DNA from: Deltaproteobacteria bacterium
Lineage (GTDB): Bacteria > Desulfobacterota > GWC2-55-46 > UBA9637
DNA length: 64,000 bases
Direction of reading: 5' to 3'
NCBI GenBank assembly: GCA_030690165.1
Contig: JAUYHF010000007.1
Coordinates: 131,420 to 195,419 of the forward strand
Position 1 is the stretch's first letter; every line of letters begins with the position of its first letter. Under the pieces are notes generated by a model that saw only the letters and a program-made list of their open reading frames with translations, had not been told where the DNA came from and did no database searches. Made by a program: the position numbers and the translations under genes. This document shows, one piece after another, positions 6,091-51,751 of this stretch.

Positions 6091-6170
6091 AGAGTCAGAG
6101 AGTCAGAGTGTCAAAGAGTCAGAGCAATATCAAAAAGTTTGACTCTATGACTCTTTGAATCTTTGACTCT
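6091..6170. repeat. octamer-unit repeat array; left terminal inverted repeat of the HEPN cassette (33-bp IR at 6138-6170)
   Basis: AGAGTCAG-type units 6091-6125 followed by TTTGACTCT-type units 6138-6170; 6138-6170 is the exact reverse complement of 6612-6644. Confidence 0.75.
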
Positions 6171-6185
6171 AAACCGGAGGTTTTT

Positions 6186-6608
6186 ATGGAAGGTTTGGCA
6201 AAAGAGGCAGACAGGTGGTTTAGGCAGGCAGAGAATGATCTGAAGTCAGCAGGATGGAGCCAGCAGGGCGGTTTTTACGCGCATGCGTGTTTCTGGGCTC
6301 AACAAGGTGCTGCAAAGACGCTGCGGGCATTCCTGTTCATGCAAAAGGAGGATGCAAGGGAGACTCGTTCTGTCAGCGAACTCCTTGAAAGGTGCCTTAC
6401 ATACGATGAAGACTTTAAGGCAATTGTTGAATCCGGCAGCAGATTAGATATATATTACAAGACAAGCCGGTATCCTGACAGCCTTCCAGGCGGCATACCT
6501 GCCGAGATTATATCTGCCAGAGATTCCAAAGAGGCGATAAAGATCGCATCGGATATTTTTGCCCTTGTGGAGGAAAAGAGAAAGACGTATATTCCGGAAG
6601 TGATGTGA
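6186..6608 (+). CDS. HEPN domain protein, solo (no nucleotidyltransferase partner)
   Basis: 140 aa helical protein with the HEPN-family RYP signature (YYKTSRYPDSLPGG); own RBS GGAGG at 6176-6180; a position expected to be His is Arg (TRSV). Confidence 0.65.
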   Translation: MEGLAKEADRWFRQAENDLKSAGWSQQGGFYAHACFWAQQGAAKTLRAFLFMQKEDARETRSVSELLERCLTYDEDFKAIVESGSRLDIYYKTSRYPDSLPGGIPAEIISARDSKEAIKIASDIFALVEEKRKTYIPEVM

Positions 6609-6611
6609 AAC

Positions 6612-6699
6612 AGAGTCAAAGATTCAAAGAGTCATAGAGTCAAAATTTTGCTGCTGTTTCAATTACTCTGACTCTGCGACCCTCTGACTCTTTGACTCT
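6612..6699. repeat. octamer-unit repeat array; right terminal inverted repeat of the HEPN cassette (33-bp IR at 6612-6644)
   Basis: 6612-6644 AGAGTCAAAGATTCAAAGAGTCATAGAGTCAAA is the reverse complement of 6138-6170; a second inverted array at 6664-6699. Confidence 0.75.
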
Positions 6700-10767: not shown

Positions 10768-11112
10768 TTGCAGGAGAGCCCCTTGAATAAAGAAGCAGAT
10801 GAGAAAGAGGTTTTATCAGAGCTAAAGCATGCCATTATGGAGATTTGCGGCAAACAGGTAGTCAGGTTTGTGCTTTACGGCTCAAGGGCAAGGGGGGATT
10901 ACGACAAAGAGTCGGATATAGACATAGCGATTGTTGTCAGGGGTATGACAAGAGAACTTAAAAACCGGATATTAGATGCTGTGTGTGACATAGAGATTAA
11001 ATATCTTACTCCCCTTTCAACTCTTGTCTTTTCCGAGGAGGATTTTGAGTTTCTGAAAAGCAGGGAGAGAAGGATAGCCCTCGATATCGAAAGGGAAGGG
11101 ATACCGTTATGA
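10768..11112 (+). CDS. minimal nucleotidyltransferase (MNT), antitoxin-like
   Basis: GSRARGDYDKESDIDIAIV is the GS-Xn-DxD nucleotidyltransferase motif; TTG start; overlaps the next ORF by 4 nt. Confidence 0.7.
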   Translation: MQESPLNKEADEKEVLSELKHAIMEICGKQVVRFVLYGSRARGDYDKESDIDIAIVVRGMTRELKNRILDAVCDIEIKYLTPLSTLVFSEEDFEFLKSRERRIALDIEREGIPL

Positions 11113-11513
11113 CGGAAGGGAATAAGAAAGACAATATCAAGATTCAACTTGAGAAGGCATCCGAAATTTTAAAAGAGGCAAATTTGCTTTTTGAGAATAA
11201 CCTTGTAAGAGGCGCAGTTTCAAGGCTCTATTACTATCTGCTTCACACTGTCCGGGCGCTCCTTCTCACCAAAGGGCTTGAACCCAAAAGCCACGAAGGG
11301 GTGTTGAGGGTTTTCGGGCAATATTTTATAAGAGAGGGGATACTGGAGGCAAGGTTTTCCCATATATTCGCAAGGCTGATGAAATACAGGGAGGAGGCTG
11401 ATTACAACCCTGCCTATGTCGTTTCAAAAGATGATTTTGTGGAGTTCAGAAAAGAGGCAGAGGTTATGTGTGACAAGATAAACAGTTATCTGAAGCAGAA
11501 GGGATATGCCTGA
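11109..11513 (+). CDS. HEPN domain protein, partner of the upstream MNT
   Basis: 134 aa helical protein, translationally coupled to MNT (ATGA overlap); typical MNT-HEPN gene order. Confidence 0.65.
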   Translation: MTEGNKKDNIKIQLEKASEILKEANLLFENNLVRGAVSRLYYYLLHTVRALLLTKGLEPKSHEGVLRVFGQYFIREGILEARFSHIFARLMKYREEADYNPAYVVSKDDFVEFRKEAEVMCDKINSYLKQKGYA

Positions 11514-12744: not shown

Positions 12745-14304
12745 ATGGATATTAAGAGTTATCAAGATTTAGAAGTATGGCAGAAGGCAATGGATTTAGT
12801 CATGGAGTGTTACCAAATGACAAAAACTTTTCCTAAAAGTGAAACCTATGGAATAGTCAGTCAATTACAGCGCGCGGCCGTATCTATTCCAGCCAATATT
12901 GCTGAAGGGAGAAGTCGTCAACATACAAAGGAGTTTATCCAACACCTATCTATAGCATATGGGTCGCTTGCAGAATTAGAAACTCATATTCTGCTTGCTG
13001 AACGTCTGAATTATATAGAGGAAGAACAGGTAAAGGGGATTATGTCACAGGCAGCAGAACTTGGTCGAATGTTTAATGGGTTGCAAAAATCTTTAAGGAA
13101 AAGGGTTCAGGGTTCAGAAAGCAATTCTCTTATATCCGATCCCCGACCCCTGATCCCTGACCCCTGTAACAAAGGTTTTTCTCTTGTTGAACTCTTAATA
13201 GCAATGGTTATTGCCTCTGTTGTGGGGTTGGCAGGGATTTCCATATTCTCATCCAGCAACTGGTCGTATAAGACGCAGGAGGATGTAACAGAGGCGCAAC
13301 AGAATGTAAGGGTTGCCACGGACAGGCTTACAAAGGACATAAGGATGGCTGGTTATGGCCTGCCTGACCCGCCGTTTTCGCTCTCCTTCACCGGTCTTCC
13401 AACCACATTTGTCGGTCAATCCGGCGGCAACATAACCTTGACTTCACCGATTACGGTCACAACCAGCGGCGGAGCAGGCGCCCCTGATAGTTTGACCATC
13501 CTTGGGATTGGGTATGAAGTTGGGACATTGGACACCACTACAGCGGTTGTTAATTGCGTCAATGGTATTCAGGCAAATATTAGCGGAGCTAACTGCATCC
13601 GACTCAGTGCCACTGCGAGCGTCCCTGCGGCTGATACAATTGATAGATTTTTCCCCGGGGGGGCGTTTAACAGTAATAGAATGCATATCAGCCTTGGAGG
13701 GGCAAAATACATAGCGCTTGCCGCGGCAGGCCAGACCGGTCAGGCTACCAGAACATTAGCATTGGGAAGCCCATCTACCCTTGATAGAGACTATCCTGAC
13801 GGCACGTCCGTTTATATCGTACAGGCAGTTCAATATACGATAGTATCGGATACTTCTATTGCAGGATGTTCAAGTTCAAATCCGTGTTTGATAAGTTTGG
13901 ATGCTACTGGACTCCGGGGAATGAACGGGGGAGCGCCTTCCAGACAACTCCTTGCTGAAAATATAGAGGACATTCAGTTTGCATACGGCATAGACGCAAA
14001 CCCAAGGGACAAGAAGATAGACGATACAGACGGGGATGGCTCGTTCGAGGGTCTGGATTATATATTCGCCGAGGCGGGCGATACCTTATCAGATCCGTCA
14101 AGCATAATAGTTGTTCGGGCAACTGTTGTGGGAAGGACAAGGAATACAGATATTAAAGGGCAGACTGGTTTTAAGGCGCAGTGTTTCGAAGACCGCCCTG
14201 TTGATGCCGGCACTACTAACTGCACAGGCGCGGCATCCGATGGTTACAGGCGAAGGATATTGACAAAGGTTATAAAGATAAGAAATCCTAAGACAGGGGC
14301 GTAA
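12745..14304 (+). CDS. pilW: single ORF: N-terminal four-helix-bundle protein (23S rRNA intervening-sequence protein / Avd-like family) fused in-frame to PilW-like minor pilin
   Basis: Residues 1-120 (SYQDLEVWQKAMDL ... PKSETYGIVSQLQRAAVSIPANIAEG ... YGSLAELETHILLAERL) match the four-helix-bundle family; after a repeat-encoded linker comes the prepilin motif G/FSLVELLIAMVIASVVG and a PilW-like body; no stop codon between the two parts. Confidence 0.6.
   Translation: MDIKSYQDLEVWQKAMDLVMECYQMTKTFPKSETYGIVSQLQRAAVSIPANIAEGRSRQHTKEFIQHLSIAYGSLAELETHILLAERLNYIEEEQVKGIMSQAAELGRMFNGLQKSLRKRVQGSESNSLISDPRPLIPDPCNKGFSLVELLIAMVIASVVGLAGISIFSSSNWSYKTQEDVTEAQQNVRVATDRLTKDIRMAGYGLPDPPFSLSFTGLPTTFVGQSGGNITLTSPITVTTSGGAGAPDSLTILGIGYEVGTLDTTTAVVNCVNGIQANISGANCIRLSATASVPAADTIDRFFPGGAFNSNRMHISLGGAKYIALAAAGQTGQATRTLALGSPSTLDRDYPDGTSVYIVQAVQYTIVSDTSIAGCSSSNPCLISLDATGLRGMNGGAPSRQLLAENIEDIQFAYGIDANPRDKKIDDTDGDGSFEGLDYIFAEAGDTLSDPSSIIVVRATVVGRTRNTDIKGQTGFKAQCFEDRPVDAGTTNCTGAASDGYRRRILTKVIKIRNPKTGA
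13141..13159. repeat. right 19-bp inverted repeat flanking the four-helix-bundle gene, inside the ORF
   Basis: CCCCGACCCCTGATCCCTG, encodes part of the linker DPRPLIPDP. Confidence 0.7.
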
Positions 14305-14354
14305 AAGACAGTGGTCAGTGGCCAGTGGTCAGTGATCAGAAAAAGAGGTTCAAT

Positions 14355-14903: not shown

Positions 14904-14957
14904 AAAGACAGTGATCAGTGGTCAGCGGCCAGTGGTCAGAGAGATTAAAAACGGGAG

Positions 14958-20003: not shown

Positions 20004-20915
20004 GTGATTTTACTGATCCCTGACCCTCGATCCCTGTATCTATGGAGGGTATTTTTGGAAAAGAAGATATGGGAAGAAAGACGAAAGAAGAAGATTGTTC
20101 TGCCAAAGGAACCCGAATCTGAGAAAAAAGATTATAGAAGATGGACGAAGTATATTATTGCCGCTGTCTTTATTATCCTTTTATTTACCCTCTTAAGGGG
20201 CAAGAAAGAAAAGATAGAGATTCCAGGGCCGGAACAGGAATCAGGGGTCAGGGGTCAGGGGTCAGAAAAACAGGGGGCAGGGGTCGTGGCTCAGAGGTCA
20301 GTGAGTAGTCCAGTCGTTGAGCTGCCGCTGCCGCCTCCGCCTAAAAAAAATACCCCCCCGGAAGTCCTGTTAATAAAGTTAAGCCCAAAGATTGTTTACC
20401 AGGGAACCAAGATAAAGGCAGAGGTTTCAGGCAAGGATGCTGATGAGGATGATGAGGTTACCTATTTTTATGAGTGGCGGAGAAACGATACTGTCTTGCC
20501 TGATAATATCCAGCCGGAGATTGATACAAAGGATTTTAAGAAGGGCGAGCTTATAACCTTGTTTGTTACGCCGTTTGACGGCAAAGACAAGGGGAAGACC
20601 AGATTTTCCAGGACAATTGTTATTGTCAACAGGCCGCCTGAGATAATATCATTCCCGCCTGTGTCTGTTTCCAACGGGAAATATCTGTACGAGGTCAAGG
20701 CAAATGACCCGGATGGCGATGCGCTTACTTATTCTCTTGAAAATGCCCCGTCCGGCATGATAATTGATCCTGCAACAGGCATAATCCGATGGGATATCCC
20801 TGTTACGGCAGATTTAAAATCGGTTACTACCTACAATATAAAGATTGTGGTAAGCGATGGCGATGCCACGGCCTTTCAAGGGTTTTCCATGACCCCTGAT
20901 GTGGAAATTAAATAA
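20004..20915 (+). CDS. membrane-anchored protein with two Ig-like/cadherin-like domains
   Basis: TM segment WTKYIIAAVFIILLFTLL, repeat-encoded linker [13 protein letters not shown], then DADEDDEVTYFYEW and DPDGDALTYSLENAPSGMIIDPATGIIRWDIP; start uncertain (GTG 20004 or TTG near 20055). Confidence 0.5.
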   Translation: MILLIPDPRSLYLWRVFLEKKIWEERRKKKIVLPKEPESEKKDYRRWTKYIIAAVFIILLFTLLRGKKEKIEIPGPEQESGVRGQGSEKQGAGVVAQRSVSSPVVELPLPPPPKKNTPPEVLLIKLSPKIVYQGTKIKAEVSGKDADEDDEVTYFYEWRRNDTVLPDNIQPEIDTKDFKKGELITLFVTPFDGKDKGKTRFSRTIVIVNRPPEIISFPPVSVSNGKYLYEVKANDPDGDALTYSLENAPSGMIIDPATGIIRWDIPVTADLKSVTTYNIKIVVSDGDATAFQGFSMTPDVEIK

Positions 20916-23529: not shown

Positions 23530-24120
23530 ATGGGTAATTTACAAGTCACCAGTTATAAGTCACCAGTCACCAGTCACAAGACTAAAAACTCAAGTCTGGT
23601 GACTTTGTGTCTGGCGACCTTGTGTCTGGCGACCTTGTGTGTCGGTTGCCAGCAAGGCGCGCCGCCACAGCCCCCTGCGGCAGAGGTAAAAAAAGAGGCT
23701 CCGAAACCGGAGACTGTGCCTATTGCTGGAGAGGCAAAAAAAGAAGAGAAGGCTCCGCCTAAAGCGGATGAGGTAAATCCGCAGAGAAATCCTTTTAAAA
23801 CATTTATTGTTAAAGCAACCGAGAGGCCGTCAGTTGTTGCGCCAAAGACGCCTTTACAGAGGTATGAACTGGAGCAGCTAAAATTAGTGGCAATAATGTG
23901 GGGCATTAACAGCCCCGCAGCCATGGTGGAGACACCGGACGGCAAAGGCTATTCAATAAAAAAAGGATACCTTATCGGGAACAGGGAAGGAAGGGTTAAG
24001 CGGATTGAAAAGGACAGGGTGATAGTGGAGGAGAGGTTTACAGAGGCCCGCGGCGAGGTTGTAACCAACGAGTTTGAAATAAAACTGCCGCTGCCCAAAG
24101 GAGAGGAGGAGTTAAGATGA
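23530..24120 (+). CDS. pilP: type IV pilus assembly lipoprotein PilP
   Basis: Position between pilO and pilQ; Cys-containing signal region (LCVGC); Pro/Ala-rich linker; N-terminal 40 codons are built from inverted heptamer/15-mer arrays, so start is uncertain. Confidence 0.7.
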   Translation: MGNLQVTSYKSPVTSHKTKNSSLVTLCLATLCLATLCVGCQQGAPPQPPAAEVKKEAPKPETVPIAGEAKKEEKAPPKADEVNPQRNPFKTFIVKATERPSVVAPKTPLQRYELEQLKLVAIMWGINSPAAMVETPDGKGYSIKKGYLIGNREGRVKRIEKDRVIVEERFTEARGEVVTNEFEIKLPLPKGEEELR

Positions 24121-27392: not shown

Positions 27393-28628
27393 ATGCTGAG
27401 ATACTTAACAGCAGGTGAATCACACGGTAAATATTTGACTGCCATTCTGGAAGGCGCGCCGGCAAATCTTAATTTGGCTGCGGATGATATAAATAAAGAA
27501 CTAAGCCGCAGGCAGATTGGCTACGGCCGCGGCGGCAGAATGGCTATTGAAAAAGATGAAGCAGAGATTACATCGGGGGTAAGGTTTGGCAAGACCATAG
27601 GTTCGCCTATTGCTATGGTTATAAAAAATAGAGATTGGGAGAATTGGAAAGAGGTTATGAATACAGGGGTCAGGGGTCAGGGGTCAGGGGTCAAAGAGAT
27701 TACCCATCCAAGGCCGGGCCATGCGGATCTGGCAGGCGCCTTGAAATATGGCCAGTATGATATTCGCAATATTCTTGAACGTTCCAGCGCAAGGGAAACC
27801 GCGGCGCGGGTTGCTGTTGGCGCAGTATGTAAAAGATTTCTGGATGAGATTGGGATAAAAGTGATGAGTTGGGTGGTGGATATAGCAGGGGTCAGGGGTC
27901 AGGGGTCAGGGGTCAGAGAGGAGAATGATATAGAAGCAATTTTTAAACTGGCAGAAGCATCTGATGTGCGTTGTCCTGATAAAAAGATTGCAGAAAAAAT
28001 GAGAAAGGCGATAGATAGGGCAAGAAAAAACGGCGACAGCCTTGGCGGGATATTTGAGGTTGCTGTAACCGGCGTTCCTCCGGGTCTTGGAAGCCATGTC
28101 CAGTGGGATAGAAAATTAGATGGGAATCTGGCAAGGGCGCTTATGAGCATTCAGGCCATAAAAGGGGTTGAGGCGGGTATAGGGTTTGAAGCGGCTGAGA
28201 GATTTGGATCAGAGGTGCATGATGAGATATTTTATAAAATCTCCCCTGACCCCTCTTTGCCAAAGAGGGGAAAATCATCTCCCCCTTTGGAAAAGGGGGA
28301 TAAAGGGGGATTTTACAGAAAAACCAACAATGCCGGCGGCATAGAGGGAGGCATGAGCAACGGCGAACCGATTATACTCCGGGCTGCGATGAAACCGATA
28401 CCAACATTATATAAACCGCTTCGGTCAATAGATATAAAAACAAAAAAGCAGTTTCAGGCAAGTGTTGAAAGGTCGGATATATGCGCTGTGCCTGCTGCTT
28501 CAGTGGTTGGCGAGGCAGTTGTTGCCTTTGAGATAGCCAATGCCTTTATAGATAAATTTGGCGGCGATTCTATCTATGAGGTAAAAAGGAATTATAAGGG
28601 GTATCTGGAGTATTTGAGGAAGTTTTAA
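27393..28628 (+). CDS. aroC: chorismate synthase
   Basis: [30 protein letters not shown] motifs; 411 aa, about 50 aa longer than typical because of three repeat-encoded in-frame insertions. Confidence 0.9.
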
Positions 28629-42746: not shown

Positions 42747-44501
42747 ATGAAAAAAGAAATAACGTTTGTATCAGCAATGATTGTATTCGGGGCAGCTATT
42801 GGTATAGGTATTATATCTATTATAGTTGCAATTGCAGCGCCTGATCTTGTAAAAACACTTTTGACGTTTCAGGAAAAGGCTGATTTTGAGCTGATGCGGC
42901 GAAAGGCCGGCTGGATAATTGAACATATTTATTTCATCAAGTATTCGCTCCTCTTCATAGCAATCTTTACCCTTATCTTGTTTCTCGTAAACTTGAACCC
43001 TCACGTAAAAAATAAGCTGAAGTTAAAATATCCTGGACTAAAATTTCTGGTGATTTTTCTGGGGGTTCTTGCCTGTTTCATTCTTCTGATATTTACCGGC
43101 GATAGAATTTCTAATTTGTTGAATTTTGATATTCAATCGCCGAATGCGGCAAATTTTCTTATTTTCTCATTTACCACAGGACTCTTATGGTTTATTGTTG
43201 GGGAGATGGGCTGGGCAGGCGATTTCTCATCATGGAAGATGGGGGTTGCAGGAGGGGAGAATAGGCCTGTTGCGGCGTTTATTTTAGGAACTGTTGTCGG
43301 CAGCGCTGTCTACGGTCTGTCCTTTCTCTATAATTGGACATTCAATAAGTACTTCATACTGGTTTCAGAGGTGCTTGATCAGTCCGGCGAAACCTCGTAT
43401 CTTGGATTCAAACTCCTGGCACATGAATTGATATTTACGACTGCAATTTCTCTTGGAATCATTGCTGGTCTTATCGTAGCGCTTGCCCCGGTTTACAGGA
43501 CATGGTGCCAGAGATTACAATGGCTTATATTGCCGGTTGCTCTATCGACAGTTCTTGCGGTGGTTATTTTTGCCGTATACACGAATGCCGCAAAAAAATA
43601 TGACCTTGGCAAAAAAGACCTTGCTCAGGCAGCAGGGGTGCCGGATAAGGCAATGGAGAGCCTGACCCTTGTTTTATTAAAGCAGGATATGGCAGCGGTG
43701 CAGGAATGGCCTTTGCAGGCGCGGGGATCGGGTTTTGTTTCCATGAGTACTGTGGCAGCAACTGGAGAAAGCCTCAAGAGGATTGAAGACTACCTTGCTG
43801 AACATAAAGAGGGTTCAGTATTCACCTATGCTGCGCAAGATGCGCTCATAAGAGGACATCATGTGATGTGGAATTTAGAAAAAGGGGTTGAATATCAGTT
43901 TCGGTATGCGGGGCAGTCGTTTCTTAATCGCATGGTGTTACTCTCCCGTCTCCGCTATCTTCCTGTGACTCCAAAGAATCTTGCCTATCTCAAGGCGTTT
44001 TCTGACGAGACCAAGTGGTATGTGGGCAAGGACGCCTGCCTTAGGATTGCGGAGGCATTTATGCATTTTGGAATGACAAAAGAGGCCCAAGACTGGGTAA
44101 ATAAGGGGAAAGAGCGCGGCGCGGATATGTCCAAGGCTGGATTTCTCAAGGATGAAGTTCTTACCCAGGGGAGGATAAAAGGGAGAGTTATTATAAACGG
44201 AATGGCGAATGTCAGCACAAAAGTAGCGCTCATGCGTCAGGATTATAAAATCGATAAGATCGAGGACGGTGCGCTTATTCATAAACTTGTTGATGTCCAG
44301 GGAATCGACAAAGACGGCAGTTTTACATTCAGCAATATAGGGAAGGGGGATTACCTGCTTATTATTGTAGCTGATAAGAATATCATCCCCTATGCTATTG
44401 CGTCTAACAAATTAAAGGTAAAAAATCTCTCAGGTCCTGTAAAGATTGATATAAATAGGCCGACGATGGATTTAGGAACCGTGAACATAGTTACTCAATA
44501 G
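42747..44501 (+). CDS. polytopic membrane protein of unknown function with C-terminal beta-sandwich-like domain
   Basis: About 8 predicted TM helices in the first 300 aa; C-terminal 110 aa resemble a carboxypeptidase-regulatory-like fold; no catalytic motif recognised. Confidence 0.4.
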   Translation: MKKEITFVSAMIVFGAAIGIGIISIIVAIAAPDLVKTLLTFQEKADFELMRRKAGWIIEHIYFIKYSLLFIAIFTLILFLVNLNPHVKNKLKLKYPGLKFLVIFLGVLACFILLIFTGDRISNLLNFDIQSPNAANFLIFSFTTGLLWFIVGEMGWAGDFSSWKMGVAGGENRPVAAFILGTVVGSAVYGLSFLYNWTFNKYFILVSEVLDQSGETSYLGFKLLAHELIFTTAISLGIIAGLIVALAPVYRTWCQRLQWLILPVALSTVLAVVIFAVYTNAAKKYDLGKKDLAQAAGVPDKAMESLTLVLLKQDMAAVQEWPLQARGSGFVSMSTVAATGESLKRIEDYLAEHKEGSVFTYAAQDALIRGHHVMWNLEKGVEYQFRYAGQSFLNRMVLLSRLRYLPVTPKNLAYLKAFSDETKWYVGKDACLRIAEAFMHFGMTKEAQDWVNKGKERGADMSKAGFLKDEVLTQGRIKGRVIINGMANVSTKVALMRQDYKIDKIEDGALIHKLVDVQGIDKDGSFTFSNIGKGDYLLIIVADKNIIPYAIASNKLKVKNLSGPVKIDINRPTMDLGTVNIVTQ

Positions 44502-44546: not shown

Positions 44547-45848
44547 ATGGCCGACAAATTTGACTGCATAATCATTGGCGCCGGTCCTTCCGGCATTGCC
44601 TGCGCATACACTCTGGCAAAGGCAGGGCTGAATGTTATGGTCTTTGAACGGGGAGAATATCCCGGCTCAAAAAATGTCTCAGGCGGGGTTTTGTATTCAA
44701 CCATCCTCAATAAACTCATCCCTGAATTTTGGAAAGATGCGCCTGTGGAAAGGCATGTGGCAAAGCGAAGATATTCCATACTCTCAAAGGATTCTGAGAT
44801 GGCTGTGGAATTAAGTTTTGACAGTTTCAATAACCCTCCCTACAACAACAGCTTCACAGTATTGCGCGCAAAATTTGACAGGTGGTTTGCAAAAAAAGCA
44901 GAGGATGCAGGGGCATTTATATTGACTGAAACAGTGGTCGATGATTTCATCTTTGAGAATGGAAAGATTATCGGGGTTAAGGCGAGGAGGGAGGGTGGCG
45001 ATGTTCTTGCAGATGTGGTTGTTTGCGCAGAAGGCGCAAATTCTCTCCTTGCAGAAAAGGCGGGCCTCAGGAAAAAACCTACAGACCATCAGATGATAAC
45101 CGCTGCCAAAGAGGTCATAAGCCTTCCACGTGAGGCTATAGAAGATAGATTCGGCTTGTCTGATGATGAAGGTGTGACCATAGAGTTTTTCGGCGACGCT
45201 GTTAAAGGGATGATAGGCTCAGGTTTTATCTATACCAATAAAGATTCACTATCCGTTGGTGTTGGCTGTCCCATAGCAGTTATGAAAGAAAATAATATGC
45301 GTCCCAATGATCTTCTTGATGCGTTCAAGTCACATCCGGTGGTAAGAAAGTTTTTAAGGGGAGGGAAGACCGAAGAATTGTCCGCAAAGATGATCCCTGA
45401 ATTGGGCTGCAAGAATCTCTCAAAATTTGCTGCCAATGGTTTACTCATTGTCGGAGATGCGGCAGGTTTGGTAAATCCGTCTCTTTATCGTGAAGGCTCC
45501 AATATGGCGATGGCGTCAGGTGTAATGGCAGCAGAGACGATTCTTGAGGCAAAGAAGAAAAGTAATTTTTCAGAATCGGCGCTGAGCGGGTTTACAAAGA
45601 GATTAAATGACAGCTTCGTTATGAAAGATTTAAAAAGATACGGCGATACGCCGAAGAAGTTATCTGCAATGCCTCAATTTTTCAAAGAATATCCTGATGC
45701 GATTCTAAAAATGGCAGAAGGATATTTCACAATATCAGACATGCCAAAAAAAGAAATGCAGAAACAGGCATGGTCTGCTTTTAAGGACAAGGTCTCTGTA
45801 TGGAGATTTCTGTGGGATATGTATAAGGCAAAGGGGTCGATTCTTTGA
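44547..45848 (+). CDS. fixC: FAD-dependent ETF-quinone oxidoreductase FixC-like
   Basis: FDCIIIGAGPSGIACA FAD fold and GSKNVSGGVLY motif; 433 aa. Confidence 0.75.
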   Translation: MADKFDCIIIGAGPSGIACAYTLAKAGLNVMVFERGEYPGSKNVSGGVLYSTILNKLIPEFWKDAPVERHVAKRRYSILSKDSEMAVELSFDSFNNPPYNNSFTVLRAKFDRWFAKKAEDAGAFILTETVVDDFIFENGKIIGVKARREGGDVLADVVVCAEGANSLLAEKAGLRKKPTDHQMITAAKEVISLPREAIEDRFGLSDDEGVTIEFFGDAVKGMIGSGFIYTNKDSLSVGVGCPIAVMKENNMRPNDLLDAFKSHPVVRKFLRGGKTEELSAKMIPELGCKNLSKFAANGLLIVGDAAGLVNPSLYREGSNMAMASGVMAAETILEAKKKSNFSESALSGFTKRLNDSFVMKDLKRYGDTPKKLSAMPQFFKEYPDAILKMAEGYFTISDMPKKEMQKQAWSAFKDKVSVWRFLWDMYKAKGSIL

Positions 45849-45902
45849 CAGGCCTCGGCAGATTCTGGGATTCGTGTAACAATAATGTATAAAACAAACA
45901 TC

Positions 45903-45930
45903 TTGTTTAAAACAGGTTGTTTGATATAAT
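45903..45930 (+). promoter_or_regulatory. sigma-70-like promoter with extended -10 for the antitoxin gene
   Basis: TTGTTT, 16-nt spacer, TGATATAAT; RBS AAAGGAGG 45937-45944 before ATG 45950. Confidence 0.4.
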
Positions 45931-45949
45931 CTCCCAAAAGGAGGCAACA

Positions 45950-46180
45950 ATGGTTAAGACATTGCATGCAGTCTATGAACATGGGATATTGAGGCCTTTG
46001 GAGCCGATAGACGATATTGAGGAGAACGCAGAAGTAGAATTGACTCTGAGCATAGAAAAGAAAGTCATTCATCCTATTTTAAGGTTTGCCGGCATATTGA
46101 AGGAAGAAGAGGCAAATCAGATGATGAAGACCGTAGACGATGAGTTTGAGAGGGTTAATCCTGATGAATGGAAAGATTAG
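45950..46180 (+). CDS. small antitoxin-like protein, probable VapB-type partner of the PIN toxin
   Basis: 76 aa; MVKTLHAVYEHGILRPLEP ... AEVELT pattern; overlaps the downstream PIN ORF. Confidence 0.5.
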   Translation: MVKTLHAVYEHGILRPLEPIDDIEENAEVELTLSIEKKVIHPILRFAGILKEEEANQMMKTVDDEFERVNPDEWKD

Positions 46181-46455
46181 CCTTGACACAAATATCGTAA
46201 TACGGCTGTTTAAAAATGATAAAGCTGTTACAAATCTCCTTTCGCGTAACTCAACGATATATCTGCATCCTGAATATTACAAGAAAGACAGCCGATCCAT
46301 ATTCTGCCATCAGATTACAGCTAAAACAAAAAGGGCGTCCAATCCCTGAAAATGACCTATGGATAGCGGCAGTCTGTATTGAAAACAGTCTTCCAATAAT
46401 CACGGCCGATGCGCATTTTGATGACGTTGATGGGTTGGAGGTTGTCAAAATATAA
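46164..46455 (+). pseudogene. PIN-domain (VapC-like) toxin, frameshifted and shortened
   Basis: N-terminal part (ISLDTNIVIRL) is in one frame to 46349; C-terminal part (ENDLWIAAVCIENSLPIITADAHFDDVDGLEV) is in the +1 frame to 46455; combined length about 97 aa is short for PIN. Confidence 0.5.
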
Positions 46456-46632
46456 ATGTTAGTAACGAAGGGCTGAGACTATGCCCGCCAAATGCGGAAA
46501 CGATGATGGAAGAGGGCAAAAGGAATATAGAAGGGCTGGTGGAGAGGTCCAATTTCTTTTTTAGCTATAGAATAAGCTGGTACTTTGATATAGAATGGAG
46601 AAAAATACTAATAATTTAGGGGGTGATTTATA

Positions 46633-46815
46633 ATGAGAGCCACTGCACAAAAAGTTAATCCAGAGGATTTTATCCTTTCGGCCCTTTCTCCAGAGGATCG
46701 GCTCGATGCGGCATTTGAGATTGCTCGCGAGGCGTTCAAAAAGACTCGTTTGACAATGAAAGATATTGATAATGCGGTTAAATCAGTAAGGAGCAAGGCT
46801 TACGAAAAGTTGTAG
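46633..46815 (+). CDS. small orphan addiction-module antitoxin-like protein
   Basis: 60 aa; LSALSPEDRLDAAFEIA resembles a putative addiction-module component family; RBS AGGGGGTG; no toxin follows. Confidence 0.3.
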   Translation: MRATAQKVNPEDFILSALSPEDRLDAAFEIAREAFKKTRLTMKDIDNAVKSVRSKAYEKL

Positions 46816-46856
46816 GGTGGTCACAGCCCACCGGATAAGGAATACAGCATGGATTA

Positions 46857-46941
46857 GGGAGAGGTTCCGCAGGGATGGTGAAGGATAAAGGGATTGGGGT
46901 TGCGATGGTGGAGGGGGATAAGATAGTCACCTGTTTTTATC
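46857..46941. repeat. 85-bp direct repeat, copy A
   Basis: GGGAGAGGTTCCGCAGGGATGGTGAAGGATAAAGGGATTGGGGTTGCGA ... TTTTTATC; about 50-nt core nearly identical to 47687-47768. Confidence 0.7.
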
Positions 46942-47001
46942 ATTTTTGAAACAATAATTTTTAGATATAGTGCTAACAAAGATATTATTAGGAGGTGTCC
47001 T

Positions 47002-47277
47002 ATGACGGTCATTGATTTGGTGGCAAAAGAATTTCATATGAACCCCAAAGAGGTTATAAAGGAAAGCATCGGCACGTATCTGCATCAGAAATTGTCGAAA
47101 GTTGAGGCAGACATCTTCACAATTGCTAAGAAACACGGCGTAAAAGATGTTTTTGAACTTGATGAAAAAATAAAAAAGGGGCTTATCAGCGAAAAGGATT
47201 CATATGATGACTATTTTGCCCTTGACAATCTTGAAGCGGAAAGGGAAAGGACCAAGAAGCTTCTGGAGAAAATTTGA
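47002..47277 (+). CDS. small acidic protein, first gene of a two-gene cassette
   Basis: 91 aa; strong RBS AGGAGG; stop overlaps next start (TGATG). Confidence 0.4.
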   Translation: MTVIDLVAKEFHMNPKEVIKESIGTYLHQKLSKVEADIFTIAKKHGVKDVFELDEKIKKGLISEKDSYDDYFALDNLEAERERTKKLLEKI

Positions 47278-47636
47278 TGCCTTCAATCCACGATCTGGAG
47301 AGGATTGCTGAGATAGAATTCGCTGACATTGTAGCCGGGACTATATTTATTAACCACAAGCTTAGAATATTTCTGACAGATAGCAGCTTTATAGATGTCA
47401 ACCTTTCGCAGAGGCTCCCAGATAAATTCGGTTTCCATTGGGAACGAATGAATAAGGCCGGCGAGGTATTCCGCTACGATAATTTCCCTGATCCAAGCTG
47501 GAAGAATGTCAGCACCTATCCATACCACTTTCATAACAGCGCACAAGAAGGAGTAGAGGCGGCACCTTTTCCGTTGGATGTCATAAAAGGTTTCAGGGCG
47601 TTCATGGAATTTGTTAGAAATAAAGTAAAGGAATGA
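47274..47636 (+). CDS. uncharacterized protein with FHWE ... RYDN ... HFH motifs, putative toxin-like partner
   Basis: 120 aa; translationally coupled to the upstream ORF; family assignment from memory only. Confidence 0.4.
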   Translation: MMPSIHDLERIAEIEFADIVAGTIFINHKLRIFLTDSSFIDVNLSQRLPDKFGFHWERMNKAGEVFRYDNFPDPSWKNVSTYPYHFHNSAQEGVEAAPFPLDVIKGFRAFMEFVRNKVKE

Positions 47637-47686
47637 AAGAGAGTTGGCTGGGATTGCCAGCAGGATGAGAGATATAGAAGGACAGA

Positions 47687-47768
47687 GGGAGAGGTTACGC
47701 AGGGATGGTGAAGGATAAAGGGTTGGGGTTGCGAGGGGTGAGAAGAGTAATCGGTTACGTTTTTTATC
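47687..47768. repeat. 85-bp direct repeat, copy B
   Basis: GGGAGAGGTTACGCAGGGATGGTGAAGGATAAAGGGTTGGGGTTGCGA ... TTTTTTATC. Confidence 0.7.
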
Positions 47769-47777
47769 TAAAAAATT

Positions 47778-48572
47778 ATGAAAACTGAAGAAGATAAATT
47801 TAAACACGAAATAGATATTTTCCGAACTGAAGTCGAATCTGGCATACAATTCTTCTATATGTATCTGGCATTTAATTCCGTCCTTAGTAAGAATAAACAA
47901 GCTCTAAAAATAGTAAATCGAACGCCTTTATTTTGGAACACGAATGTTGGTGCTCTACAGACCTCTTTTTTTATCGTATTGGGACGACTTTTTGACCAAA
48001 ACTCCAACCACAATGTTGATAGGTTGATAGGAGTTGCCCAAAAGCATTCTGATATTTTTTCTGCAGAGGCATTGGAAGTTCGTAAGCGAGCAGGGAGTGC
48101 AAATGCAGGTGAATGGATAAATGACTACATGAAAGACGTTTATGTCCCAACTAACGATGACTTCAGACGCCTGAGAAAATATGTTAGCAAGTATCGCAAA
48201 ATTTATGAGAACACATATCGGGATATAAGGCACAAGGTATATGCTCATAAAGTGCTATCAAATAAGGCTGATGTGCATAATTTATTTGCACGGACCAACA
48301 TTCGTGAAATACAAAAACTATTGATTTTTCTGAATCGAGTTCATGAAGCTCTTTGGCAACTTTTCCATAATGGTCGCAAACCTACATTGAGGGCAATGAA
48401 ATACTCAGTCAGTAGTATTATGAAAAATGTTCTGGCTCCAGAATGGCAAAGCCGACAGATTCAAGAACTGGTGGTGCATGAGACCCAAAAGTTTTTCGAC
48501 ATATTATTATCTATACCCAATAAGCGAGAACAGGAAAAGGACAGGACACTCTACAGGTTGAAGGAACAGTAA
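47778..48572 (+). CDS. uncharacterized protein, possible HEPN-like (Abi-type) defence protein
   Basis: 264 aa, mostly helical; R-x5-H motif RDIRHKVYAH; sits in an accessory islet; assignment tentative. Confidence 0.35.
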   Translation: MKTEEDKFKHEIDIFRTEVESGIQFFYMYLAFNSVLSKNKQALKIVNRTPLFWNTNVGALQTSFFIVLGRLFDQNSNHNVDRLIGVAQKHSDIFSAEALEVRKRAGSANAGEWINDYMKDVYVPTNDDFRRLRKYVSKYRKIYENTYRDIRHKVYAHKVLSNKADVHNLFARTNIREIQKLLIFLNRVHEALWQLFHNGRKPTLRAMKYSVSSIMKNVLAPEWQSRQIQELVVHETQKFFDILLSIPNKREQEKDRTLYRLKEQ

Positions 48573-48664
48573 TGGTGACTGACCTAATAGAAAAACAAAC
48601 AAGGAGTAATAAAAAATCTAAAACTTACTGGAAGAACTAATACAACCATGCTTACACTGATTCT

Positions 48665-48970
48665 ATGAGCCAATTTGAACAAATATTACAACCACTTGAA
48701 CCCAAAACCCTTGAGGAAAAGCTCTATCTTGTCAGGTTCAAAACTGATACAGAGAGCCATTTGAAGGTTGACTCTGAGAAATGCAGGGTTTGTAAAGATA
48801 AAGGTTGTATCTATATCTGTCCGGCAGATGTTTACAAAATGGATGAGAAGGAGAATATCGTAATCTCTTTTGAGGCGTGTCTTGAATGCGGCACTTGCAG
48901 GATTGCATGTGATTTTATAGAATGGAAAAATCCAAAGGGCGGGTATGGGGTGTGTTATAGATATGGATAA
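48665..48970 (+). CDS. fixX: ferredoxin-like protein FixX
   Basis: CRVCKDKGCIYICP and CLECGTCRIAC cysteine clusters; C-terminal YRYG; 101 aa. Confidence 0.75.
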   Translation: MSQFEQILQPLEPKTLEEKLYLVRFKTDTESHLKVDSEKCRVCKDKGCIYICPADVYKMDEKENIVISFEACLECGTCRIACDFIEWKNPKGGYGVCYRYG

Positions 48971-49009
48971 GACAGGTTATAGGCTATGGGCAAGAGGCGA
49001 TAGGAAAAT

Positions 49010-50188
49010 ATGAAAGACATCATTATAGCCGGCGCAGTCAGAACCCCTATTGGGTCTTTTAACGGGGCATTGAGTAATATCCCTGCTACAGGGCTTGGCA
49101 GTATTGCTATAAACGGGGCAATAAGCGGGGCAGGCATTAAACCAGCAGATGTTGGCGAGGTCATTATGGGAAATGTCCTCAGCGCTGGCATTGGTCAGGC
49201 GCCTGCAAGGCAGGCGGCTATTGGCGCGGGTCTGCCTTATGGGGTTAATTGTCTGGCAGTAAATAAGGTCTGCGGCTCAGGATTAAAGGCTGTGATGCTG
49301 GCGGCACAGGCAATTGCCCTTGGTGATGCAGATATAATCGTTGCCGGTGGCATGGAGAACATGAGCCGTGCTCCACACCTCCTTGAAAAGGCAAGGTTCG
49401 GTTACAGGATGGGGAATGGCGAGATTATTGATAGTATGATTAAAGACGGCCTGTGGGATGTTTATAATAACCTTCACATGGGTTCTTGCGCTGAGATTGT
49501 TGCTGAAAAATACAAAATCAGCAGGGAAGATCAGGATAGATACGGATTGCAGAGCTATAAGAGGGCAATAGATGCTCAGAAAAATGGTTGCTTCAATGAT
49601 GAGATTATTCCGATAACGCTCCCGGCTGGACGTGATAAATTTAAGAGTTTAACAATGGATGAAGAGCCCACAAGACACGACTTTGCGAGATTTGCAGAGC
49701 TTTCTCCTGTTTTTAAAGAGGGCGGCAGTATAACAGCAGGGAATTCTTCAAAGATAAGCGACAGCGCAGCAGCGGTTGTTGTGATGTCAGGGGATAAGGC
49801 AAAGGAGTTGGGCATACAACCGATAGCAAGGATTGTTGCATATTCTTCGCAGGGTGTTGAGCCGGAGATGTTCAGCATCGCACCTGTCGGCGCAATCAAA
49901 AAAGTTTTAGAAAAGACAGGACTGAGTTTGAAGGATATTGATCTGTTTGAGATAAATGAGGCATTTGCAGTATCCATGCTTGCAGTTATAAAAGAGCTTG
50001 ATTTAGATGAGACTAAGTTAAACATTCATGGAGGGGCCATTGCATTAGGACATCCGATTGGCGCAAGCGGCGCAAGGATTTTAACGACTCTGCTTTATGC
50101 TATGAAAAGGAAAAATGCAAAGAGAGGCATTGCGGCCATCTGCATTGGCGGCGGCGAGGCAGTGGCAATGCTGGTGGAGAGGATATAA
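49010..50188 (+). CDS. acetyl-CoA acetyltransferase (thiolase II)
   Basis: Thiolase motifs VNKVCGSGLKAV, NIHGGAIALGHPIGASGARIL, GIAAICIGGGE; 392 aa. Confidence 0.95.
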   Translation: MKDIIIAGAVRTPIGSFNGALSNIPATGLGSIAINGAISGAGIKPADVGEVIMGNVLSAGIGQAPARQAAIGAGLPYGVNCLAVNKVCGSGLKAVMLAAQAIALGDADIIVAGGMENMSRAPHLLEKARFGYRMGNGEIIDSMIKDGLWDVYNNLHMGSCAEIVAEKYKISREDQDRYGLQSYKRAIDAQKNGCFNDEIIPITLPAGRDKFKSLTMDEEPTRHDFARFAELSPVFKEGGSITAGNSSKISDSAAAVVVMSGDKAKELGIQPIARIVAYSSQGVEPEMFSIAPVGAIKKVLEKTGLSLKDIDLFEINEAFAVSMLAVIKELDLDETKLNIHGGAIALGHPIGASGARILTTLLYAMKRKNAKRGIAAICIGGGEAVAMLVERI

Positions 50189-50190
50189 AC

Positions 50191-50256
50191 ATGGATATCA
50201 AAACCATCGGTATAATCGGCGCAGGCATAATGGGTTCCGGCATAGACAGGGTATAG
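50191..50256 (+). pseudogene. duplicated 5' fragment of the 3-hydroxybutyryl-CoA dehydrogenase gene (21-codon remnant)
   Basis: ATGGATATCAAAACCATCGGTATAATCGGCGCAGGCATAATGGGTTCCGGCATAG matches the first 57 nt of hbd at 50903 with about 5 mismatches, then hits a stop; abuts the thiolase stop. Confidence 0.6.
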
Positions 50257-50350
50257 CACTACACTCTGTGTTGTGGTGTTTAAATAGTTTATTGAAAAGG
50301 TTTGAATATAAAGCCCTTATAATGTAAAATTGCAAGAAAAGGAGACGTTC

Positions 50351-50575
50351 ATGCCAACAACACAGAAACAAAAAGATATAGTGTATGTCAAACAGTATGT
50401 AACCGATGCAAAAGGGCATAAGATGGCTGCTATTCTTGATATAAAAGAATTGGCAAGAGTCCAAGAGCTGCTGGAAGACCTTGCAGATCTGAAGGCAATT
50501 GAAGAAAGGGTGTGCGAAAAGGAAGAAAGTTACGAGGCATACAGCCGAAAGAGAAAGTCTTCCCTCCATGTATAA
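50351..50575 (+). CDS. antitoxin of a RelE/ParE-type toxin-antitoxin module
   Basis: 74 aa from ATG 50351 (RBS AAAAGGAG); stop overlaps the toxin start by 8 nt (ATGTATAA). Confidence 0.5.
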   Translation: MPTTQKQKDIVYVKQYVTDAKGHKMAAILDIKELARVQELLEDLADLKAIEERVCEKEESYEAYSRKRKSSLHV

Positions 50576-50822
50576 ACTCGTCATCAAAAACTCTGCAAAG
50601 AAAGAGCTCGACGATATTCCTGCTGCTCAATTCTTAAAGATTGATGCCGCAATTCTGTTATTAAAGACAAATCCGCATCCATTTCCACAGTCAAAAAAAC
50701 TAAAAGGTTAAGACAAGTGCCGGCTTCGTGTGGGTGACTACAGGGTTGTTTACGCTGTTGATGAAAAAGAGAAGAACATAACAATCTATCGGATACGTCA
50801 TAGAAAAGAGGTTTACCGCTAA
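50568..50822 (+). pseudogene. RelE/ParE-family toxin interrupted by an in-frame TAA (50709-50711)
   Basis: MYKLVIKNSAKKELDDIP ... SKKLKG-stop-DKCRLRVGDYRVVYAVDEKEKNITIYRIRHRKEVYR; both halves in the same frame and together match RelE/ParE. Confidence 0.6.
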
Positions 50823-50902
50823 ATGTACGCCATGCACAAGGATTCTTATGAAAGGCTGTAATATGAGAGAAAGAGGGGCATTCCCAGCATTTTTATAGAA
50901 TT

Positions 50903-51751
50903 ATGGACATCAAAACCATCGGTATAATCGGCGCAGGCACAATGGGCTCCGGCATAAGCCAGGTTATGGCATTATCAGGCTTTGAAGTCATAATGATGGA
51001 TATGAAGGATGAGTTTGTTCGGAGGGGGCTGGAGAATATAAAAAATGGCCTTGGTAAGATGCTTGAAAAGGCAAAAATAACCGCTGAAGAAAAAGAAAAA
51101 ACTATTGCAAGGATTCGCACTACCATCAGACTTGAAGACATGGCAAAGGTAGATTTTGTAATAGAGGCAGCATCCGAGATGGCGGAATTGAAATTAGATA
51201 TATTCAGAAGGCTTGATATAATCTGCCGCAAGGATACTATCCTTGCAACAAACACATCCTCCATACCAATTACACGTATAGCCTCTGCGACGAAAAGGGA
51301 AGACAAGGTTATCGGAATGCATTTCATGAACCCTGCGCCTGTAATGAAGCTCGTGGAGATAATCAGGGGAACGAACACATCTGGCGAGACATTTGCCGCA
51401 GTCAAAGGTCTTACTGAAAAGATTGGCAAGATTCCCGTAGAATCCAAAGACCGCCCTGGTTTTATAATGAATAGAATCCTTATGCCTATGATAAACGAGG
51501 CTGTCTTTGCATTTATGGATGGGGCTGCGTCTGCCGAAGATATTGATAAGGCAATGACACTCGGCGCAAATCAGCCAATAGGGCCTCTGGCGCTGGCTGA
51601 TCTAATCGGCCTCGATACAGTGTTTTCAATTATGGAAAGCATATACAGTGAGACCAAAGACCCAAAACACCGGCCATGCCAGCTGCTTAAAAGATATGTG
51701 GATGCAGGGGAGCTGGGCCGGAAAACAGGGAAAGGGTTTTATAAATATTGA
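50903..51751 (+). CDS. hbd: 3-hydroxybutyryl-CoA dehydrogenase
   Basis: NAD-binding GIIGAGTMGSGI, C-terminal dimerisation domain; 282 aa. Confidence 0.9.
   Translation: MDIKTIGIIGAGTMGSGISQVMALSGFEVIMMDMKDEFVRRGLENIKNGLGKMLEKAKITAEEKEKTIARIRTTIRLEDMAKVDFVIEAASEMAELKLDIFRRLDIICRKDTILATNTSSIPITRIASATKREDKVIGMHFMNPAPVMKLVEIIRGTNTSGETFAAVKGLTEKIGKIPVESKDRPGFIMNRILMPMINEAVFAFMDGAASAEDIDKAMTLGANQPIGPLALADLIGLDTVFSIMESIYSETKDPKHRPCQLLKRYVDAGELGRKTGKGFYKY

Follow-up and report, generated by a model that had tools for sequence, protein, structure and literature searches.

An array of toxin-antitoxin and predicted phage-defense cassettes between fixC and fixX in a groundwater deltaproteobacterium

In a metagenome-assembled genome (MAG) of a groundwater deltaproteobacterium, the metabolic genes fixC and fixX are separated by a 2.8-kb interval of small genes. 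We analyzed this interval (45849-48664) within a 64,000-nucleotide stretch of contig JAUYHF010000007.1 (assembly GCA_030690165.1, positions 131,420 to 195,419), hereafter the window; coordinates are those of the window unless a related locus (L number) is named. The interval holds five co-oriented units, which make up four small toxin-antitoxin (TA) or phage-defense cassettes, two of them with decayed or deleted toxins. The same junction is empty in some relatives and differently filled in others, and the cassette genes have diverged far less from their relatives than have the core genes beside them. These findings make it likely that the interval is an accessory array of four selfish/defense cassettes in a lineage-specific hotspot at the fixC/fixX overlap, and that the cassettes were shuffled through homology within a repeat element that lies between them.

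Four cassettes, two of them without a working toxin

The original prediction, made from the letters alone, had listed five units between fixC and fixX, and all five were recovered on the + strand. It had read them as a VapB-like antitoxin, a decayed PIN toxin, an orphan antitoxin-like gene, a two-gene cassette bounded by direct repeats and a possible HEPN/Abi-like gene of 264 amino acids (aa), none with an obvious metabolic role. Profile searches and comparison with homologous loci upheld each of these identities, and the profile searches returned TA and abortive-infection (Abi) families, with no housekeeping functions among them.

The first cassette resembles a VapBC module. Its AF2212-like antitoxin scored above the Pfam cutoff (Table 1), and the VAPB_antitox profile gave a sub-threshold match only. 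An AGGAGG Shine-Dalgarno (SD) sequence precedes the gene, and the extended -10 motif upstream of it may act as a promoter; our consensus promoter scan did not list this site because its weak -35 matches at only 3 of 6 positions. As expected of a VapBC antitoxin, this is a small upstream gene of a recognized antitoxin family, and its stop overlaps the start of the PIN gene by 17 nt. The PIN/VapC gene itself is broken. Its N-terminal (46164-46265) and C-terminal (46267-46455) pieces lie in different frames, and only the C-terminal half, in the second frame, matched PF01850 (profile positions 67-119). In the alignment with a VapC chain from the PDB, query residue 6 pairs with chain residue 4 and query residue 51 with chain residue 86, corresponding to a loss of ~37 residues. 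A complete single-frame PIN domain of ~120-130 aa was not found, and we classify the gene as a VapC-family pseudogene.

The second cassette is represented by orf60, which matched none of the Pfam, NCBIfam and PADLOC models. Its homologs number 360 (~61 aa, 73-100% identity) and come from two phyla, in MAGs of groundwater Deltaproteobacteria and of Nitrospirae/Thermodesulfovibrionia; the ratio of nonsynonymous to synonymous divergence (dN/dS) was 0.08-0.26. Since a 128-aa PIN_3 (PF13470) gene follows orf60 homologs at a distance of 20 nt in at least 20 related loci (among them L103, L111-L120 and L127-L134), orf60 is assigned as the antitoxin of an orf60/PIN_3 pair, and is a candidate for a new antitoxin family that is highly conserved, unannotated and partnered with PIN_3. 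In the window, the PIN_3 gene is absent and no remnant of it was found: the 3' end of orf60 (GAAAAG/TTGTAG) runs without a gap into the hairpin of R1, the repeat that follows. Compared with homologs, the deletion joint (GAAAAG/TTGTAGGG) displays AAAAG microhomology, which is consistent with loss of the toxin gene by deletion between AAAAG microhomologies. Truncated PIN_3 toxins occur in L101 (86 aa, frameshifted) and L109 (89 aa) as well. A conserved region upstream of orf60 travels with it and contains a TTGATA-N18-TAATAA motif, which may function as a promoter. Some members of the orf60 family (P0015-P0134) have been mislabeled 'GH35 xylanase' by the Joint Genome Institute. In L103 (3866-3960), a near-perfect palindrome of ~75 nt (AAATAACTTGTAGGGCAAGCC...GGCTTGC...CCCTACACCAAGTTATTT) lies between an element copy and the orf60 promoter region.

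The AF2212-like/PIN and orf60/PIN_3 pairs share with VapBC modules the antitoxin-then-PIN order and overlapping genes, but differ in that both PIN toxins are inactivated in this genome and that the antitoxin family of orf60 is unannotated. Two type II TA modules have lost their toxins, VapC/PIN by deletion and frameshift and PIN_3 apparently by way of microhomology, while their antitoxins remained intact. An anti-addiction or regulatory role may explain why the two orphan antitoxins persist.

The other two cassettes are intact. In the third, the DUF6516 match of the toxin spans positions 1-80 of the 81 in the profile, and its ATG overlaps the stop codon of a small adjacent antitoxin gene (TGATG, with the A at 47277 in common), as is characteristic of TumE-TumA operons. 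TumE proteins form a family of translation-inhibiting toxins; experiments on other members demonstrated both the toxicity of TumE and its neutralization by TumA (Durairaj et al. 2023, PMC10584680). Relative to that superfamily, the pair described here shares the DUF6516/TumE domain and the overlap of antitoxin stop and toxin start, but has an antitoxin of the MJ0235 family and a groundwater deltaproteobacterial host. The MJ0235 assignment (PF27273) was precomputed for the identical protein in L001 and for L101-type loci. Because the protein missed the NCBIfam TumE equivalog cutoff (13.9 versus 90 bits), we place it in a divergent subfamily; PADLOC, run on the window proteins, returned nothing beyond a weak TumE match. 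The tumA-tumE pair is conserved in L101-L108, and compared with L101 the tumA block is 90% identical in nucleotides and tumE has a dN/dS of 0.11.

The fourth cassette is a single HEPN gene of the AbiU2 family, recognized by the HEPN_AbiU2 profile together with a conserved Rx4-6H motif (R151-HKVYA-H157, i.e. R151-x5-H157) of the catalytic type, in which R151, A156, H157 and K158 were invariant among 16 homologs of 53-100% identity. AbiU2 has been classed as an Abi HEPN domain, with a lactococcal abortive-infection gene as the basis of the family's definition (Anantharaman et al. 2013, PMC3710099). The gene described here shares with the family PF18734, the motif and a defense-type neighborhood, comparable to the family's restriction-modification (R-M) operon contexts, but it stands alone, without a Sel1 or R-M partner, and no PADLOC model matched it. 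Its dN/dS was 0.4-0.5, suggesting faster evolution than that of orf60, as is often the case for defense genes. TumAE and AbiU2 are probably active; for AbiU2 the prediction is an RNase through which the cell dies or is arrested when a phage infects it.

Table 1. Features of the fixC-fixX interval, its core flanks and the second hotspot in the window
Feature	Position	Strand	Basis or remark
fixC, ETF-quinone oxidoreductase-type flavoprotein (ETF, electron transfer flavoprotein); left core flank	44547-45848	+	NCBIfam FixC-type subfamilies, E=1e-95 to 1e-98
Native fixC 3' flank, common to L010	45849-45886	+	Inserted DNA begins beyond
Extended -10 promoter-like motif TGATATAAT, upstream of first antitoxin	45922-45930	+	Read from sequence; putative function
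AF2212-like (VapB-type) antitoxin, 76 aa, intact	45950-46180	+	PF01954, 31.3 bits versus cutoff 21.6
PIN/VapC toxin pseudogene, ~37 codons deleted, frame change near 46265/46267	46164-46455	+	PF01850 and PDB VapC alignment
Element R0, truncated	46463-46566	+	nhmmer E=4e-13 and 9e-10
Promoter-like region travelling with orf60	46553-46632	+	93-95% nucleotide identity with L101-L110 from 46553
orf60, 60 aa, orphan antitoxin of orf60/PIN_3 pair	46633-46815	+	Homolog loci
Element R1, GTAG hairpin abutting orf60 stop	46802-46944	+	nhmmer E=6e-35
tumA-like antitoxin, MJ0235 family, 91 aa, intact	47002-47277	+	PF27273, precomputed
tumE toxin (DUF6516), 119 aa, intact	47277-47636	+	PF20126, E=1e-12, 48.3 bits versus cutoff 23.4
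Element R2, from tumE stop to 7 nt before abiU2 ATG	47629-47771	+	nhmmer E=3e-29
abiU2-family HEPN gene, 264 aa, intact	47778-48572	+	PF18734, E=2.6e-21, 76.4 bits versus cutoff 26.8
abiU2 cassette 3' tail	48573-48650	+	Insert end ~48641-48656
GATTCTATGA, ~10-nt copy of fixC end GATTCTTTGA (45839-45848)	48659-48668	+	Read from sequence
fixX, ferredoxin-like; right core flank	48665-48970	+	NCBIfam FixX E=1e-12 and Fer4_ETF_QO
Second hotspot, thiolase/hbd junction, 1.2 kb downstream	50183-50974	+	Same kind as fixC-fixX site

The fixC-fixX junction across relatives

We next compared the junction among relatives from groundwater "Deltaproteobacteria" MAGs whose FixC is 81-90% identical. The fixC gene of the window is full-length, with orthologs at that level in L002-L006 and L010, and the fixX orthologs are 81-86% identical; an exact-protein look-up of FixC returned no match. 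The original prediction had stated that the two genes are normally adjacent, and they indeed overlap in L006, L084-L091 and L100, where a single ATGA joins the fixC stop to the fixX start, and lie 38 nt apart in L004. The L004 spacer contains a (GTCAGGA)n heptamer array. In L100 the genes stand in the order etfB-etfA-fixC-fixX-thiolase; in the window, etfA/etfB (fixA/fixB) are absent from the 64 kb, and fixCX follow selB-selD.

Other relatives carry different cargo at this site. The L002 islet is 4.8 kb long and comprises genes for a CfrBI-like type II restriction enzyme, an N6/N4 methylase, a 438-aa protein and DUF6933/PDC-S63; DUF6933 adjoins fixX in L092-L099; a ribbon-helix-helix antitoxin follows fixC in L010; in L083, fixC is followed by a copy of the repeat element and then a frameshifted DUF86/HepT-like gene; and in L121 a different PIN_3 gene, the element and abiU2 precede fixX and thiolase. 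Because the junction is empty in some relatives and differently filled in others, we regard it as a lineage-specific TA/defense hotspot. The suggestion in the original prediction that the islet belongs to such a hotspot is borne out, and its content is not conserved core in related genomes.

The interval named there also stood, with one amendment: the inserted DNA proper is narrower, from ~45887 to ~48650. On the left, ~38 nt past the fixC stop are common to L010 (82% identity in blastn between 45800-45886 and L010 9275-9361). On the right, homology to L122, at a different chromosomal site, stops at 48656 and that to L126 at 48641, and the ~15-25 nt 5' of fixX align with other occupied sites. 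The ancestral overlap of fixC stop and fixX start now stands at both ends of the islet as a duplicate of ~10 nt, and fixX has probably been uncoupled from fixC. Misassembly is unlikely, since an independent Logan assembly (L001, from SRR13727534) was 100% identical over 45800-48700, including the frameshift and the rest of the PIN lesion; its fixC, fixX and thiolase products also matched those of the window at 100%.

With conserved flanks, empty or variable sites and a variable, defense-rich cargo (TA, Abi and R-M genes) that is much younger than the core, the site qualifies as a core-gene-flanked defense hotspot. It differs from other chromosomal defense/TA islands in three respects: the insertion lies inside an operon, at the 4-10-nt stop/start overlap of two subunit genes; neither a tRNA gene nor an integrase adjoins the site; and a dedicated repeat stands between the cassettes.

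The inter-cassette repeat and its part in cassette exchange

The repeat element measures ~130-175 nt and consists of a GTAG-headed hairpin with a purine-rich tail. Its full anatomy comprises an optional module A; module B, which opens with GTAG and a 5-7-bp GC hairpin; a purine/GGA-rich core with a 25-mer; and a T-run. Of the three copies in the window (R0, R1 and R2), R0 retains module A, part of B and the T-run, without the hairpin and G-rich core; the terminator scan placed a weak terminator-like hairpin in it (46533-46550). R2 travels with abiU2 in L121, L122-125 and L126. The direct repeats that the original prediction had noted around tumAE (46826-46898 and 47656-47728) are real, sharing an exact 25-mer for which 0 occurrences are expected by chance and bracketing tumAE by exactly one repeat period of 830 nt; to these R0 adds a third, truncated copy, and the repeat belongs to a family spread over several arrays and genomes.

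The hairpin was the sole conserved structure: GTAG is joined to a GGGTGGGCATTGCCCACC-type stem in which two pairs have changed on both sides, i.e. in a compensatory manner. Fold z-scores of the element on both strands were not significant (-1.7 to +1.2), no canonical terminator was found in R1 or R2, and an Rfam scan of 45700-51000 (E≤5) gave two chance-level matches only, neither at the element. Several candidate readings of the element failed. A strict G-quadruplex motif was present in the G-rich core of 3 of 10 copies and in 0 of the window copies; a small open reading frame (ORF; MVKDKG...) has lost its start codon in several copies and differs in frame between R1 and R2 through an indel; and the frame of minus-strand ORFs over the element is not conserved. 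We likewise rejected a type III TA reading, with the element as RNA antitoxin of abiU2, because the same element precedes many unrelated cassettes. As a separate observation, an 82-nt insert resembling a miniature inverted-repeat transposable element, with terminal inverted repeats CCCCGTTAGAAGC.../...GCTTCTAACGGGG, occupies the same position within the conserved element core in three copies (L101 4613-4692 and ~6356-6440; L127 5681-5760).

An nhmmer profile built from the window copies gave 45 matches in 1.54 Mb of fetched DNA, and L127-134 added a further 21. Every match lay between cassettes and had the same orientation as the cassette genes. Every related TA/defense array that was fetched contained copies, in at least six array contexts besides the window: L083; L101-L108, next to pyrD; L103, next to hflX/ubiE; L109; L121; L122-L125, next to rplU-rpmA; L126; and L127-L134, next to a type III R-M system or followed by AbiV. 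As a control, the rest of the window (~61 kb) and related core loci totaling ~150 kb were searched, and no copy was found.

The cassettes themselves recur at unrelated sites. The L101-type arrays next to pyrD are collinear with 46553-47723 (orf60, R1, tumAE and R2 as far as its 25-mer core) at 90-93% identity, and the element, abiU2 and tail (47653-48656) are 81% identical to L122 and 89% identical to L126. The abiU2 gene occurs at three different sites, and downstream of orf60-PIN_3 lies HepT-like_2 in L127 but AbiV in L129, so that one cassette has different neighbors. Synonymous divergence (dS) between the window and its relatives was 0.24 for orf60 (L103), 0.15 for tumA and 0.29 for tumE (both L101), and 0.18 for abiU2 (L121), compared to 1.22 for core fixC (L006, a contig of the same MAG as L103) and 0.65 for core fixX, which adjoins abiU2 (L121). 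Because the cassette values (0.15-0.3) lie far below that of fixC (1.2), recent horizontal exchange is indicated. A phage or plasmid origin was rejected: blastn of the islet found no match in either collection, and the element core was absent from viral contigs.

Breakpoints between blocks of different ancestry fall within the element, but not at one fixed position. L127 and L129 match at 98.5% identity as far as module A and diverge beyond it; R1 is mosaic, its 5' part resembling L109 (88%) and its 3' part, with tumAE, L101 (90%), with the breakpoint in module C; and that of R2 lies in modules B/C. These varying positions speak for homologous recombination within the element rather than a site-specific crossover at a fixed point. 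We suggest that horizontal acquisition brought in the cassettes and that they have been reshuffled among arrays: exchange between relatives could rely on homology in the flanking core genes, while shuffling between arrays would most likely use the element as a portable tract of homology for RecA-type recombination.

We weighed whether the element might instead be the recombination site of an undescribed integron-like, site-specific system, with a recombinase encoded elsewhere and units of the element plus its gene or genes as the moving parts. Such a system would account for small co-oriented cassettes with one ~130-nt element between each in so many contexts, for a single cassette having different neighbors (orf60-PIN_3 in L127/L129, abiU2 at three sites) and for the single repeat period around tumAE. 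We nevertheless consider it unlikely. The element has no attC architecture: R''/R' motifs (RYYYAAC/GTTRRRY) and long-range pairing are lacking, only the local 7-bp hairpin is conserved, and folding was unremarkable on either strand. Scans of ten window ORFs (303-461 aa) and of the 4-5 kb flanking the other arrays on each side turned up no integrase, and the ancestry junctions vary in position. A clean one-cassette polymorphism between L121 and the window was sought and not found, the PIN_3 of L121 being only 36% identical to the orf60 partner. The array thus shares with integrons and clusters of attC sites lacking an integrase (CALIN) the small, co-oriented, TA-rich cassettes, the ~130-nt repeat between them and their reordering at different loci, but differs in lacking attC inverted repeats and core sites and in its variable crossover positions, and no IntI turned up nearby.

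Repetitive extragenic palindromic (REP) sequences and bacterial interspersed mosaic elements (BIME) carry a GTAG-headed hairpin after stop codons and are typically dispersed through the genome at high copy number, together with a RAYT transposase. The GTAG palindrome of our element likewise begins a short GC-rich hairpin 0-8 nt past stop codons and is strictly co-oriented with transcription, and this likeness, the 3' T-run, the terminator-like site in R0 and the short homologous flanks common to occupied sites would fit an RNA element of the REP or untranslated-region type acting only as a 3' stabilizer, terminator or insulator, with mobility solely through the flanking core genes. We find this still less probable. 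The element has a single hairpin followed by a conserved purine/GGA-rich tail of ~100 nt and has so far been seen only inside TA/defense arrays. The three copies that the window contains all lie in the islet, and the ~150 kb of related core loci gave 0; in addition, R1 and R2 lack a canonical terminator, the boundaries of ancestry blocks between cassettes coincide with the element, and core-flank homology leaves unexplained the presence of the same cassettes at unrelated chromosomal sites.

A single integration of one larger mobile element (prophage, integrative and conjugative element or transposon), of which the islet would be what decay has left, is highly improbable: although the overlap duplicated at both ends and the ~25 nt just 5' of fixX common to all occupied sites suggest a single opening of the site, there are no integrase, transposase or structural genes and no matches in phage or plasmid collections or viral contigs, individual cassettes each have their own relatives elsewhere, diverged to different extents, and no occupied site that we examined has a complete mobile element with the same ends.

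Several points weigh against our preferred reading, an array shuffled through element homology. A role in homology only leaves the strict co-orientation and conserved hairpin unexplained, and the element may have a role at the RNA level (3' stabilizer, terminator or leader) or be served by a dedicated recombinase. Breakpoint mapping within such similar repeats rests on few informative sites. Because the element-bearing loci were retrieved through cassette genes, the association of element and array is partly ascertained by construction, the ~61 kb of window and ~150 kb of core loci serving as a limited control. The toxicity and defense phenotypes of TumE and AbiU2 are predictions from family membership. 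Finally, no SD or promoter is evident 5' of fixX after the insertion, and expression of this core gene therefore probably relies on read-through from abiU2.

Other variable junctions and wider meaning

A second hotspot lies at the thiolase/hbd junction. A RelB-like antitoxin gene (50351-50575) is accompanied there by a ParE/RelE pseudogene (50568-50822), whose frame is interrupted by a TAA (50709-50711), and the hbd 5' end is duplicated over 62-80 nt, with one copy on either side (50183-50261 and 50895-50974). A duplicated hbd start is the signature expected from recombination anchored by one-sided homology. Of the relatives compared, L006 has a compact junction here, L002 carries MazE-PIN at it and L092 two small genes.

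The selD-fixC interval is a third variable junction, with non-defense cargo. In the window and L010 only, it carries a gene for a 584-aa multi-pass membrane protein without a Pfam match (42747-44501); it is empty in L002 and L084, and encodes a 154-aa protein in L004, a 519-aa ankyrin-like protein in L005 and a PfkA-like protein in L006. Elsewhere in the window, a solo HEPN-domain gene (PF05168; 6186-6608) has imperfect palindromes of octamer repeats, ~80 nt each, on either side ((AGAGTCAG)n...(TGACTCT)n at 6091-6171 and 6612-6699), which may be a different kind of cassette boundary element. A nucleotidyltransferase gene (PF01909) and a HEPN gene (PF05168), of the MNT-HEPN TA type, lie between a sigma-54 activator and pilin genes (10768-11513). 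Tandem heptamer arrays of ~4 copies (CAGGGGT, CAGTGGT and AGTCACC) occur at 27664-27693, 27886-27916, 20241-20265, 13138-13166, 14309-14339, 14909-14939 and 23544-23577, two of them within the aroC ORF.

The islet genes are members or pseudogenes of known families, and the locus is a new example of a core-flanked TA/defense hotspot. The element between the cassettes matches no described family that we tested: its hairpin is REP-like and its arrangement integron-like, but it fails the attC definition. We tentatively raise the idea, itself rather doubtful, that the element marks an undescribed cassette system of groundwater Deltaproteobacteria, an analogue of integrons with a different site and either an unlinked recombinase or host machinery. 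TA and anti-phage cassettes would then be assembled and reshuffled at several core-gene junctions, even inside operons.

Taken together, these findings indicate that TA/defense genes can colonize the point at which two conserved metabolic genes overlap, stop codon on start codon, and that such a site then turns over rapidly. Loss of the toxin with retention of the antitoxin occurred three times within 6 kb (PIN, PIN_3 and ParE), and orf60 emerges as a candidate for an unannotated, highly conserved antitoxin family partnered with PIN_3 toxins. If the repeat does drive exchange, it would represent a second route, besides integrons, to modular defense arrays, and its sequence could be used to mine metagenomes for new defense genes.

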